This document shows, piece by piece, positions 15,313 through 19,648 of a stretch of DNA of 26,993 bases. The notes under the pieces were generated by a model. It saw only the letters and a program-made list of their open reading frames with translations. It did no database searches and was not told where the DNA came from. The stretch is taken from the NCBI GenBank assembly GCA_018062165.1, contig JAGOSU010000001.1:1-26993 (forward strand), given 5' to 3'. This DNA is from Minisyncoccota bacterium (GTDB taxonomy: Bacteria > Patescibacteriota > Minisyncoccia > Phycocordibacterales > Phycocordibacteraceae). The position numbers and the translations under genes were made by a program. Each line of letters starts with the position of its first letter. Position 1 is the stretch's first letter.

Positions 15313-15879
15313 ATGGATTTGAACACAGTACTCCTTATAGGTAAGCCCGGCAGCGGCAAGGGCACACAGGCTGCACTTCTGGCACAGAAGACCGGATGGC
15401 AGACCATTGCGTCCGGGGACCTCTTCCGTGCACTTATGAAAGAAGATACGGAAGTAGGTGCCAAGATGCGCGAGGAGATTGAGAAGGGCCTTCTTGCTCC
15501 TGATTGGTTTGCGATGTATCTCTTCCAGAAGTCGGTACTCAACCTTCCTTCTACCCAGGGAGTAATCTTTGATGGCTTTGGCCGCAAGGTGCCTGAAGCT
15601 AAAGTCGTCGTTGATGTGCTCACCTGGCTCGGGCGTCCGTTCACGGCAGTGCACGTGAAGGTCTCAGATGCTGAAATTATTGACCGCCTCGAGAAGCGAA
15701 AAGGTGTCTCTGGACGTGCTGACGACCATGCGGTTGAGAAACGACTTGATGAATACCGCATCTTCACCGAGCCTTCTATTGAGGTGTTCCGCGAAGCTGG
15801 AAAGCTTGTTGAAGTGAATGGCGAGGGTGAGGTCGACGCTATTCAGGCAGAGATACAGAACGCGCTCAACCTCGAATGA
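15313..15879 (+). CDS. adk: Adenylate kinase, short-LID type
   Basis: GKPGSGKGTQA P-loop, DGFGR, GRADD; TGcTACAGT 8 nt upstream. Confidence 0.93.
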   Translation: MDLNTVLLIGKPGSGKGTQAALLAQKTGWQTIASGDLFRALMKEDTEVGAKMREEIEKGLLAPDWFAMYLFQKSVLNLPSTQGVIFDGFGRKVPEAKVVVDVLTWLGRPFTAVHVKVSDAEIIDRLEKRKGVSGRADDHAVEKRLDEYRIFTEPSIEVFREAGKLVEVNGEGEVDAIQAEIQNALNLE

Positions 15880-16652
15880 TTGTCCGTACACCAGAAGAGC
15901 GGGAGGGAATCATCGAAGCTGGACGCCGTCTTGGCGTCGTGCTCTCTGAGGTAGCGAAGATTGTGGCGCCCGGCGTTTCAACTGCTGACCTTGATATTCT
16001 TGCAGAGAAGCTGATTCGTGAGGGAGGGGACGTCCCGGCCTTTCTTGATTACACTCCCGAGCGTGGGGTGCGTCCGTATCCAGCGACGCTGTGCGTTTCT
16101 ATAAACAATGAGGTGGTGCACGGTATTCCAAACGAGGCACCACGTATTCTTGAGGAAGGCGATATCGTTGCGCTTGATCTTGGATTGATTCACAAGGGAT
16201 TTGTTACCGATTCTGCCCTCACCGTTGCCGTAGGGGAAGTGAGTGATGAGGCGAAGCGCCTTATGCAGGTGACAGCGAAGTCACTTGAAGACGCGATTGT
16301 TGCTGCGCGCCCGGGCAATCGTATTGGCGACATCTCGCACGCAACCGAAGCTGCCTTTAAGGGAAGCGGCTTCTCGGTCGTGAAGGTACTTGGCGGACAC
16401 GGTGTAGGGTCGGCGGTGCATGAGGAGCCCTGGATTAGTAACGTTGGCACGCCTGGTACGGGGCCTGAGATTGTGGAGGGGATGGTGCTCGCGCTTGAGC
16501 CGATTGCCAACGCAGGCAAGGCTTCGGTCATTCTTGCGCCTGATGGCTATACGTACCGCTCCAAGGATGGCTCCATTTCCGCTCACTTCGAGCACACTAT
16601 TTTAGTAGAGAAGGAGAAGACGTTGGTGATTACGAGGCGCCCTGGCGAGTAA
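15876..16652 (+). CDS. map: Methionine aminopeptidase type I
   Basis: CVSINNEVVHGIP, GHGVG, HEEP, LEP, AHFEHT. Confidence 0.97.
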   Translation: MIVRTPEEREGIIEAGRRLGVVLSEVAKIVAPGVSTADLDILAEKLIREGGDVPAFLDYTPERGVRPYPATLCVSINNEVVHGIPNEAPRILEEGDIVALDLGLIHKGFVTDSALTVAVGEVSDEAKRLMQVTAKSLEDAIVAARPGNRIGDISHATEAAFKGSGFSVVKVLGGHGVGSAVHEEPWISNVGTPGTGPEIVEGMVLALEPIANAGKASVILAPDGYTYRSKDGSISAHFEHTILVEKEKTLVITRRPGE

Positions 16653-16712
16653 CAGGATTTAGGCTATACTCCCCACATACAAGCGCGAAAGCGATTTTTT
16701 ACTATAGGAACC

Positions 16713-17321
16713 ATGCCTACCCCGCACCCCAAGAAAGAGCGTACGTTCGTGATGATTAAGCCTGATGGCGTTCAGCGCGGACTGGTTGGCGAAATCGTCC
16801 GCCGTTTCGAGAACACGGGCCTCAAGCTCGTCTACCTCAAGCTCTCTATGCTCGACGAGACAAAACTCTGGGAGCACTACGGCAAGGATGACGCATGGTT
16901 TGAGAAGAAGGGAGCGGGCATCATGGCCGACCGCCAGGCAGCAGGACTCCCGGTAGAAAAGGAAGCCCTTGAGTATGGCAAGGACATCATCCGCGCACTC
17001 GTAACGTTCATGACCGCAGGACCGGTCGTTATGATGGTGATTGAAGGCAACCAGTCAGTTGCAGTGGTGAAGAAGCTTGTGGGAGGCACGGAGCCCGCAA
17101 CGTCAGACGTTGGTACCATTCGTGGTGACCTCACGGTGGACTCCTACTCTATTGCGGCAATTGATGACCGCGCAGTACGCAACCTCATTCACTGTTCAGA
17201 CCAGCCTTCAGAAGCTGAGCGCGAGATTGCACTCTGGCTCCCTGGAGCAGAAGTGCTCAGTTACCGCCTCGTTGGGGAACAAATTCTCTACGACGTTAAC
17301 CTCGACGGTATTCTCGAATAG
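16713..17321 (+). CDS. ndk: Nucleoside diphosphate kinase, long form
   Basis: ERTFVMIKPDGVQRGLVGEI, GTIRGD, RNLIHCSD (catalytic His). Confidence 0.95.
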   Translation: MPTPHPKKERTFVMIKPDGVQRGLVGEIVRRFENTGLKLVYLKLSMLDETKLWEHYGKDDAWFEKKGAGIMADRQAAGLPVEKEALEYGKDIIRALVTFMTAGPVVMMVIEGNQSVAVVKKLVGGTEPATSDVGTIRGDLTVDSYSIAAIDDRAVRNLIHCSDQPSEAEREIALWLPGAEVLSYRLVGEQILYDVNLDGILE

Positions 17322-17353
17322 AAAGGAAGCAGCCAGAGTGATATTCTCACTCT

Positions 17354-17659
17354 ATGGCTGCACCAAAGATTTCTGGCGGCACGGTACACACCCTCCCGTC
17401 TGATGTGCGAAAGGTCTTGAGTGTCGATGCTAAGGCACGTGCGGCATGGGAGAGTCTGACGCCGCTTGCGCGCAATGAATGGATTTGTTGGACTATTTCC
17501 GTACAAAAAGCAGAGACACGTCATGACCATGTGCGACGAGTACGGAGCCAACTGAAAGAAGGGAAGCGTCGCCCCTGCTGCTGGATTGGGTGTATTCATC
17601 GCCCTGACAAACCGATGAGCCCATCGGTAAAGGGAGTGCTCAATACACGAAGGAAATAA
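17354..17659 (+). CDS. YdeI/OmpD-associated family protein
   Basis: LPSDVRKVL...WESLTPLARNEWICW...RRPCCWIGC; TGaTATTCT 6 nt upstream. Confidence 0.75.
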   Translation: MAAPKISGGTVHTLPSDVRKVLSVDAKARAAWESLTPLARNEWICWTISVQKAETRHDHVRRVRSQLKEGKRRPCCWIGCIHRPDKPMSPSVKGVLNTRRK

Positions 17660-17709
17660 AGGCGATTGCGGTATCCACATCCCCTTCATAGAGGAGGAGT
17701 ATACTTATA

Positions 17710-17849
17710 CGTGGAGCCATTCCTTGAAACGCAACTTACTTTCCCTACGGGAGTCTTATATCTACGCACGATAGTGAACTTTGTTCCGATTCGAGCGATG
17801 CGGACACCCACTTGGCACTATCGAGTTGCCAAACGGGAATGGCTCTACG
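17710..17849 (+). ncRNA. ssrS: 6S RNA candidate (ssrS-like), compact ~140 nt
   Basis: 15-bp terminal stem 17710-17724/17835-17849 with G-U pairs on the + strand; GCAAC/GTTGC stem; central bubble; GGGAGTC (17749-55) pairs with GACACCC (17803-09) with an A.A mismatch; 3' bubble mini-hairpin CTTG-N7-CGAG; TATACT at 17700-05; terminator follows. Confidence 0.72.
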
Positions 17850-17853
17850 AAAG

Positions 17854-17875
17854 AATCCCGCGCTGCGGGATTTTC
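17854..17875 (+). terminator. Intrinsic terminator after the ncRNA
   Basis: AATCCCGC-GCT-GCGGGATTTTC. Confidence 0.7.
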
Positions 17876-17894
17876 TCGTGCTAAAGTGGTTTCT

Positions 17895-18254
17895 ATGCGG
17901 ATTCGCTGGCTCCTTCTCGCGCTCGCCTTGAGCGCGCTTCTGCTCTCCCTTCATCTCTGGGGTACCGCAGAGTTTTTGTACTGGAAGTTCGTGTGGTTCG
18001 ATAGCCCGATGCATCTCTTGGGAGGCATTACACTCGGCGTGTTCGTCGCTACGCTTTTGAAAGCTCCTCAGCCCGTTAAATTTTATGGGCTCATCTTGGT
18101 GCTCATTGTAGGGTGGGAGCTATTTGAGTTCCTCCTCGGTTCTCCACGCAAGGACAACTATGCGTTTGATACCGTACTTGATCTCTGCCTTGGTGTGCTC
18201 GGGGCATCGCTTGCGTATTATTCCGCTCGAAGGTCGCTATGGCGCTCCGCGTAA
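17895..18254 (+). CDS. Small integral membrane protein (YjdF/DUF2238 or VanZ-like), start corrected to 17895
   Basis: WFDSPMHLLGG, GWELFE, DTVLDL motifs; about four hydrophobic segments; TGcTAAAGT 7 nt upstream. Confidence 0.7.
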   Translation: MRIRWLLLALALSALLLSLHLWGTAEFLYWKFVWFDSPMHLLGGITLGVFVATLLKAPQPVKFYGLILVLIVGWELFEFLLGSPRKDNYAFDTVLDLCLGVLGASLAYYSARRSLWRSA

Positions 18255-19648
18255 CGTTCTACGGCGGTGCTGGCACCGTCACAGGTTCGAACTTCCTCGT
18301 TGAAAGCGGGAACAGCAAGGTGTTAGTGGATTGCGGTATTGAACAAGGAAAAGATTATTGTGAATCGTGTTCGTATGACCCATTCCCGTATGAGCCGGGA
18401 AGTATTAATGCACTTGTGATAACGCACGCGCACCTCGACCACATCGGACGCGCTCCACGCTTGGTGAAGGAAGGCTATGCAGGTCCCGTGTACATGACGG
18501 CTCCCACGCGTGATATTGCAGAGGCGATGCTTCGCGATAGTGCTGATATTCTCGGACAGAATGCTGCAGCGCGTGATTTGGCGCCACTGTATCTGCAGGA
18601 GCATGTGACGAAGTTTCTTTCACTCATTAAGGTCATTGAGTATCGGACGGAGACCAAGCTTACGGATGACCTCTCTTTGTATTTGCGAGACACGGGGCAC
18701 ATCCTTGGTGGGGCGAGTGTACGGCTGACGGACAAGGAAGGGGTGTCGCTTGCTTTCACGAGCGACATTGGGAACTCGCCAACCCCGCTTCTCCCAGACG
18801 CAGAGACTATTACTGACGCGGATGCTGTTGCTATTGAGAGTGTGTACGGAGACCGCCTGAACCCAGAGAAGGCGCATCGAGTCGAGAAGTTTAGGGACAC
18901 GCTTAAGAGCGCACTTGCTCGTGGTGGCCCCATCCTCATTCCCTCGTTCTCCATCGAGCGCACCCAGCTCATGCTCTATGAGCTCTCTAACCTCATGGAG
19001 GCAGGAGAACTACCACAGGTGCCGGTGTTCCTTGATTCACCTCTGGCCATTGAGGTTACGAACATCTACCGGAAGCACGGCGCGAAGTTCTTTAAGGATA
19101 CCGCTCAGGAAGAACTCAAGCGCGAGCATGACCTCTTCAACTTCCCGTTCCTACGGATGACGAAGTCCCGGGAGGAGTCTATGAGTATTGCGGAGGTGAA
19201 GGACCCGAAGATTATCATCGCAGGAGCTGGCATGAGTCACGGTGGTCGCATCGGGAAGTGGGAGCACCGCTACCTCCCAGACCCTAAGACCACCCTCATC
19301 ATGGTGGGGTACCAGGCACCAGGAAGTCCAGGGAGAATGCTCCAGGATGGCGCTAAGAAGGTGCGCATTGACCATCGGGACGTTACGGTGCGTGGACATA
19401 TCGAGACCCTGCATGGCTGGTCTGGGCATGCAGACCGGGACGGGCTCCTCAAGTTTGCGGAAGGGTGTCTGCCTCGGACAAAGAACTTTTTTGTGACGCT
19501 CGGAGAGCCATCGTCTGCGCGCTTTCTTGCGCAGCGTATTCACGATTTCCTCGGGACGCGCGCGATTGTACCGGGGAAGGGAGATGTGTGGGAGGTGACG
19601 AAGGAAGGAGTGAAGAGGATAGAGAGCCAGAAAGGGTTTGAGGCGTAG
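18239..19648 (+). CDS. MBL-fold beta-CASP ribonuclease (COG1236/TTHA0252-like)
   Basis: THAHLDHIG, SDIG, ESVYG, PSFSIERTQ, GWSGHAD. Confidence 0.9.
   Translation: MALRVTFYGGAGTVTGSNFLVESGNSKVLVDCGIEQGKDYCESCSYDPFPYEPGSINALVITHAHLDHIGRAPRLVKEGYAGPVYMTAPTRDIAEAMLRDSADILGQNAAARDLAPLYLQEHVTKFLSLIKVIEYRTETKLTDDLSLYLRDTGHILGGASVRLTDKEGVSLAFTSDIGNSPTPLLPDAETITDADAVAIESVYGDRLNPEKAHRVEKFRDTLKSALARGGPILIPSFSIERTQLMLYELSNLMEAGELPQVPVFLDSPLAIEVTNIYRKHGAKFFKDTAQEELKREHDLFNFPFLRMTKSREESMSIAEVKDPKIIIAGAGMSHGGRIGKWEHRYLPDPKTTLIMVGYQAPGSPGRMLQDGAKKVRIDHRDVTVRGHIETLHGWSGHADRDGLLKFAEGCLPRTKNFFVTLGEPSSARFLAQRIHDFLGTRAIVPGKGDVWEVTKEGVKRIESQKGFEA

Follow-up and report, generated by a model that had tools for sequence, protein, structure and literature searches.

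Between the ndk gene and a gene for a beta-CASP/RMMBL ribonuclease, the genome of this member of the Minisyncoccota carries a region for which no open reading frame accounts, and the question raised by the locus is what this region encodes. Here we report that positions 17711 to ~17876 (+ strand) of the window, which is the whole 26,993-nt stretch of DNA that was analysed, are probably the ssrS gene of a compact 6S RNA, consisting of a 140-nt rod and a terminator hairpin, with its function assigned from that of the family. As a mimic of an open promoter, 6S RNA holds RNA polymerase. No publication that treats 6S RNA of these bacteria came up in our literature search.

Locus and structure of the RNA

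The assembly consists of 629 kb in 60 contigs, is 88.8% complete, and contains the RNA element once. At 17700-17876 (+), a -10 box is followed by the 140-nt rod and then by an intrinsic terminator; all three had been named in an earlier reading of the letters alone (the sequence-only reading) and were found in place on inspection. The -10 promoter box TATACT (17700-17705, +) follows a TATA.T pattern that is invariant in 12/12 genus relatives, and no match to a -35 element was found upstream of it. The primary transcript is predicted to be ~165 nt long (17711-17876, +), with a start placed 6-8 nt past the -10 box and an end placed in the U run of the terminator. The terminator (17854-17876, +), which was read from the sequence as an 8-bp core stem with a GCU loop (AAUCCCGC-GCU-GCGGGAUU) and a U run, was absent from the output of a simple terminator scan; its hairpin and U run are plain by eye. 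In relatives, terminators of unrelated sequence stand in the same place, each genome having its own. The RNA of the window is a stand-alone unit of predicted promoter, RNA and terminator, with one copy in this genome.

The plus strand folds with a minimum free energy of -54.0 kcal/mol, compared with -32.5 +/- 3.4 kcal/mol in 200 shuffled sequences (z -6.4); the z value of the minus strand is only -3.6. Adopting the consensus fold costs the window sequence just 2-4 kcal/mol above this minimum. The rod is closed by a 15-bp stem with two G.U pairs (5' strand 17710-17724, 3' strand 17835-17849, +), for which the genus alignment contains 13 modelled pairs, with 96.7% of cells paired and 6 pairs changed on both sides. 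Helix P2, the downstream duplex, is formed by GCAACUU (17731-17737, +) and GAGUUGC (17823-17829) and aligns to uGAgCC/GGuUCa of RF00013, the Rfam model of 6S RNA. Since it hardly varies within the genus, only one compensatory event, an A-U to G-C change in a single relative (G017), can be counted in its favour.

The large central bubble has a pyrimidine-rich 5' strand of 11 nt (ACUUUCCCUAC; 17738-17748, +) that is unpaired in the consensus, and a 3' strand of 13 nt (ACUUGGCACUAUC; 17810-17822, +; family consensus ACCUGGCA) that comes after the invariant CCCAC and aligns to ACCUgg of RF00013. In the signature helix, GGGAGUC (17749-17755, +) pairs with GACACCC (17803-17809), with an A.A mismatch; GGG/CCC is invariant and the flanking pairs covary both in the genus and in the order. 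The apical arm (17756-17802, +), with its tip GAAC-UUU-GUUC (17776-86), is shorter than in relatives, where it is capped by a tetraloop and where the arm helices covary. The sequence-only reading had described the 15-bp closing stem, the GCAAC/GTTGC stem, the 5' bubble, the GGGAGTC/GACACCC helix with its A.A mismatch and the apical tip, and all of them are in place. The motif CTTG-N7-CGAG that it had added is indeed present in the window but not conserved, with 65% of cells pairing versus 63% after shuffling; as a conserved hairpin it was rejected, doing no better than shuffles or slid controls.

Conservation in the genus and the order

When 40 relatives were searched at the DNA level, the element turned up in genomes of the same genus, and twelve matches were extended to full length with nhmmer. 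In the genus alignment, GCAACUU, GGG, CCCAC.U.GC and GUUGC are invariant or nearly so, and the closing stem is variable yet paired. The model-based alignment of 14 sequences has 94.4% of cells in standard pairs, versus 81.2% when shuffled and 39-53% when the pairing partners are slid; 18 of the 34 pairs are changed on both sides, and none of 500 shuffles reaches any of the observed measures. The transcript can be assigned to the plus strand, since the frequent G.U pairs suit this strand only and the opposite strand costs more than 100 bits in covariance model score.

A covariance model built from the genus copies (R1) gave single matches in 24 further genomes from other families of the order. 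Among the order-level copies inspected, a TAnnnT box was found 6-20 nt upstream in 22/22 and an intrinsic terminator directly downstream in 22/22. A second model (R2), built from 21 diverse order-level copies of other families, detected the RNA in 124/151 sampled genomes of the order (110/133 among high-quality genomes), nearly always in exactly one copy and in two copies in three genomes. Under strict genome-search filters, R2 did not find the genus of the window; searched directly on the window, it scored 33.4 bits (E 1e-4). The order alignment is paired in 92.2% of cells, and every cell of the GGGAG/CACCC helix (100%) is paired, three of its pairs covarying; again, 0/500 shuffles reached the observed values. 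Covariation and conservation in relatives, which the sequence-only reading had named as a check, are thus found for the rod at both levels. Such conservation across the order is the profile expected of a housekeeping RNA gene.

Several of the loci surveyed have features of their own. In three genomes of the order, two tandem matches to the RNA model lie 50-350 nt apart, at G027:C5:28578-29076, G106:C42:18116-18557 and G168:C10:6906-7263, and these may be duplicated 6S genes, comparable to 6S-1 and 6S-2 in Bacillus. In a genus relative (G010; L007:1125-1331), the tip of the apical arm carries an inserted perfect hairpin of ~60 nt; this genome, whose contamination is 5%, has a second RNA match on another contig. 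A contig search with the beta-CASP protein yielded three loci in all. Two of them (L064, L065), from near-identical metagenome-assembled genomes labelled Candidatus Saccharibacteria, have a beta-CASP protein that is 97% identical and an RNA that is nearly identical; the third (L066), a 68% relative and the more distant genome, is labelled Paceibacterota, so that the public labels disagree.

Similarity to the 6S family

At gathering thresholds, no Rfam family matched the window, and at E <= 10 a 351-nt segment gave chance matches only (asX2, sR28, Ysr202). RF00013 did not match when searched against the whole genome; on the element alone it scored 10.8 bits (E 2.6), which is not significant and lies below the curated cut-off of 46.4 bits, an annotation threshold that stands for no biological property. 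The alignment obtained spans model positions 36-151 and places P2, the GGGAG/CACCC helix, the apical arm and ACUUGG on their counterparts. Around the central bubble, the consensus of RF00013 reads GGGag...caCCCACCUgg, i.e. the same GGGAG...CACCCACCUGG core as in the window, where the counterpart is GGGAGUC...GACACCCACUUGG; it does not vary within the genus or within the order. The sequence-only reading had named the pairing of GGGAG with CACCC followed by ACCUG as a 6S signature, and the Rfam consensus bears this out.

Among 41 relatives, RF00013 gave five matches at E <= 1, and 5/5 lie on the orthologous RNA. The best of them, in G005, extends over the full length with 35.1 bits (E 4.9e-6); the others are in G013, G007, G017 and G026, and a sixth match at the orthologous locus, in G106, came from a scan of the loci. 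A search with RF00013 at relaxed thresholds, as the sequence-only reading had envisaged, therefore gave little for the window itself (10.8 bits) but did hit the orthologous locus in five relatives. No genus copy attains the cut-off of 46.4 bits. In the phylum sample, RF00013 matches were significant in 22 of 151 genomes, with lengths of ~143-197 nt, and exceeded the cut-off in 7/151, where the matches are 153-158 nt long. In the reverse direction, twelve RF00013 loci from other classes were searched with the lineage-specific models; R1 matched six and R2 five, at the Rfam coordinates, and three of the loci matched by R1 or R2 score above the Rfam cut-off.

Similarity to the 6S family is thus significant through intermediates. 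Because the RF00013 score of the window is not significant and the genus stays below the cut-off, membership rests on these intermediates. The remaining features agree with it: the rod has the architecture of a 6S RNA (closing stem, internal helix, large central bubble and apical arm), and the gene stands alone, with a sigma-70-type promoter and a 3' end of its own, in one or two copies per genome. No second 6S candidate was found elsewhere in the genome. Since the intermediates are significant and every testable feature of structure and sequence is present, we class it as a compact and divergent 6S RNA, and the matches of RF00013 to the orthologues together with those of R1 and R2 to 6S genes of other classes support the short 6S RNA that the sequence-only reading had proposed; neither a better match to another Rfam family, which it had named as counting against the proposal, nor a competing 6S candidate in the genome was found. 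As the 6S family is well known and 6S RNA is already detectable with Rfam in some members of the phylum, the gene, as classified from its sequence, is a further, divergent member and no new kind of RNA.

Predicted pRNA synthesis and release

Besides the CTTG-N7-CGAG motif, a second detail of the sequence-only reading needs revision. The perfect 8-bp helix CGAUAGUG/CACUAUCG, put forward there as a release conformation, does occur in the minimum free energy fold of the window but is not conserved, with 53% of cells pairing before and 53% after shuffling; it is private to the window, no better than shuffles, and was rejected as a conserved feature. As both this helix and CTTG-N7-CGAG are private to the window, the compensatory C-G to U-A change claimed along with them finds no support.

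We propose as a better fit for the release conformation an alternative 3' hairpin, UUGGCA (17812-17)/UGCCAA (17827-32), which would span 17812-17832 (+). It draws on the 3' strands of both the bubble and P2 and is mutually exclusive with P2. In the genus, at least 4 consecutive pairs can form in 13/14 sequences and all 6 in 7/14; the hairpin changes at two positions, the outer pair being C-G, U-A or G-C and the inner pair G-C, A-U or G.U. In the R2 alignment, its counterpart in the rest of the order is a standing hairpin within the 3' bubble strand (CCUAG...CUAGG), which covaries (90.4% paired, with observed values reached by 0/500 shuffles). When 17726-39 was blocked to mimic a bound pRNA, the best fold contained the UUGGCA/UGCCAA hairpin, at -49.6 kcal/mol, the same energy as that of the open-bubble P2 state.

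The start of pRNA synthesis is predicted at C17739 (GUAAGUUGC), in agreement with the sequence-only reading; in the RF00013 alignment this is the third bubble nucleotide after P2, which would correspond to the E. coli start site U44. The genome has a 441-aa open reading frame with sigma-70 region 2, of the size of a primary sigma factor, and two small sigma-like open reading frames. If the gene works like others of the 6S family, from which the following steps are taken, its RNA would sit in the active-site cleft of the RNA polymerase holoenzyme carrying the primary sigma factor, mimicking an open promoter, and transcription from DNA promoters would be blocked in the occupied holoenzyme under nutrient scarcity. 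When NTPs return, the polymerase would copy the 5' bubble strand from near C17739 into a short pRNA, 5'-GUAAGUUGCG..., which would unwind P2 (17731-37 with 17823-29). The freed 3' strand of P2 could then pair with the 3' bubble strand (UUGGCA/UGCCAA) as a release hairpin of the E. coli type, and the RNA would leave the enzyme.

Gene neighbourhood and alternative explanations

The succession map-ndk-RNA-small membrane protein-beta-CASP/RMMBL ribonuclease, with every gene on one strand, recurs in the genus and in at least 20 other families of the order. In the window it extends over 15876-19648, and loci L003-L051 show the same order from map to the beta-CASP gene; the small membrane protein has no Pfam match. 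The conserved arrangement map-ndk-RNA-beta-CASP supports the orthology of the RNA matches, and it would also suit a leader. A gene for a 101-aa protein of the YdeI/OmdA family (17354-17659) lies between ndk and the RNA; it was found in none of the compared loci of the genus and the order and looks like a recent insertion. The downstream membrane-protein gene has a -10 box of its own, TAAAGT preceded by TGc, and its start codon ATG at 17895 (17882-17897, +). TGcTAAAGT ends 7 nt before this ATG, and no Shine-Dalgarno sequence is present (17880-17897); the gene appears to be leaderless.

The neighbourhood also bears on a possible partner. RNase J1 of B. subtilis acts in both the maturation and the decay of 6S RNAs (PMC10578484), and the neighbouring beta-CASP nuclease might likewise act on the 6S RNA described here. 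A more far-reaching and rather speculative idea, which we consider only as a minority possibility, is that the release device of 6S RNA changed its type within the order and that the beta-CASP enzyme is a nuclease dedicated to the maturation or decay of 6S RNA. Most families would then have kept the standing hairpin in the 3' bubble, as in B. subtilis, and the genus of the window would have turned it into a switch competing with a new, invariant P2, as in E. coli; the fixed position of the RNA gene upstream of the beta-CASP gene would reflect the dedication of the nuclease, comparable to RNase J1 in B. subtilis.

Among the alternatives to a 6S RNA, the one with the best prospects, though we hold it to be unlikely, is a housekeeping RNA of 6S ancestry or shape that has another partner, such as core polymerase (as for Ms1) or a different protein, and makes no pRNA. 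Scores below the Rfam cut-off would fit it, as would the shortness of the apical arm in the window, this arm being the counterpart of the -35-like region. Yet the most conserved parts of the RNA are those that define 6S RNA, namely the bubble, its flanking helices and the ACCUGG strand; no Ms1 match was found at E <= 10, where Rfam matches were chance matches only, and truncated 6S-1 RNAs, reduced to the bubble with short arms, remain capable of the complete cycle in vitro (PMC8876501). Considerably less probable is a cis-acting leader or attenuator of the membrane-protein and beta-CASP genes, working by autoregulatory cleavage or ligand-dependent termination. Such a device would agree with the place of the RNA ahead of these two genes in at least 20 families and with the succession of promoter, structure, terminator and gene, which is also the layout of an OFF riboswitch, but not with the details. 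The closing stem is complete and very stable, and no antiterminator is evident; the rod shares only 2 nt with the terminator, and therefore there is no sign of a switch. With its own -10 box 7 nt before the ATG, the downstream gene is independent of read-through. Neither the mutually exclusive terminator and antiterminator of a riboswitch or attenuator nor a dependence on read-through was thus found, which speaks against this candidate. In addition, most genus relatives lack the membrane-protein gene, so that the adjacent gene differs; 6S RNAs of other classes adjoin none of these genes; the conserved core is the 6S core; and no riboswitch, leader or other cis-regulatory family of Rfam matches the window.

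We attach almost no probability to the remaining explanations, that the element is an SRP RNA (4.5S) or an inverted repeat acting at the DNA level, i.e. the end of a mobile element or a recombination site. An inverted repeat is at odds with the strand specificity of the G.U pairs and of the covariance model scores (a difference of more than 100 bits), and the element is single-copy, syntenic and part of no repeat family; with one copy in the genome, a repeat or mobile element was rejected. An SRP RNA would be a rod-shaped hairpin of about the right size, and none was detected elsewhere in the genome, but the SRP models (RF00169, RF01854) do not match the element. These models also gave no match elsewhere in the genome, and none in near-complete genomes of the genus, including one that is a single contig. 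The SRP protein families, which were matched in 14/14 control genomes, gave a consistent picture: the Ffh M domain PF02978 was found in 0/3 genomes, the SRP54-type GTPase domain PF00448 in 0/41 genomes of the order and 1/121 of the phylum, where the single match is weak and covers the P-loop only, and TIGR00959 in 0/101 genomes of the phylum and not in the genome studied. A tblastn search of this genome with E. coli Ffh gave nothing better than E 0.07, with the control genes rplS, trmD and rpsP being found, and the only open reading frame with a DTAGR motif has an N-terminus that resembles MraZ, as judged by eye. With no Ffh or FtsY found in the genome or its relatives, no SRP RNA is expected, and this candidate was excluded. 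The lineage appears to be without the SRP pathway. Literature on SRP loss in these bacteria was uninformative; the ftsY and SRP genes in papers on TM7x are those of the host. SRP is usually counted as universal, and the finding, if real, would mean a large radiation without such a system.

Significance

The assignment as 6S RNA would identify the RNA between ndk and the beta-CASP gene and supply its link to the 6S family. The Rfam 6S model misses this gene in most of a large order of the candidate phyla radiation, whereas the lineage-specific model finds it in the 124 of 151 genomes given above, and including these sequences in the seed alignment would mend the annotation. Very reduced genomes that apparently lack the SRP pathway would nevertheless have kept polymerase control of the 6S type, which gives a hint on which regulators are hard to lose.

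Comparison with known RNAs

With the E. coli-type 6S RNA (SsrS, RF00013), the RNA of the window shares the closing stem, P2, the large central bubble and the apical arm, the GGGAG/CACCC helix followed by ACCUGG, and the organization as a single stand-alone gene. The two differ in size, the rod of 140 nt standing against a model of 187 positions, and in score, as 10.8 bits fall short of the cut-off of 46.4 bits. Release of the E. coli type proceeds through a hairpin that the P2 strand, once freed, forms with the 3' bubble strand (PMC8876501); a hairpin of the 3' bubble strand with the 3' strand of P2 is likewise possible in the window once P2 opens, but its predicted length is 6-8 bp rather than 9 bp.

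The 6S-1 RNA of B. subtilis has a standing hairpin in the 3' bubble strand of the free RNA (PMC8876501), as predicted for the small hairpin in the 3' bubble strand of the order-level relatives. A further likeness is that the pRNA predicted for the window begins with G, the template of which is a C immediately 3' of P2. In contrast to 6S-1, the hairpin of the genus of the window competes with P2 and does not stand beside it.

Ms1 RNA of Actinobacteria, which binds core RNA polymerase (PMC9130861), is also a rod-like RNA with a bubble and a shape related to 6S RNA; it differs from the RNA of the window in that no sequence or model match connects the two and that Ms1 is without the 6S core present here. 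Further counterparts are the Rfam-detectable 6S RNAs from other classes of the phylum, which have the core in common with it (GAGAGUC...GACACUCACUUGG or GGGAGC...CACCCACCUAG), are likewise compact at 153-158 nt and are matched by R1 and R2. These have no ndk or beta-CASP gene within 1.5 kb and reach the Rfam cut-off, whereas the family of the window, with its fixed place upstream of the beta-CASP gene, stays mostly below it.
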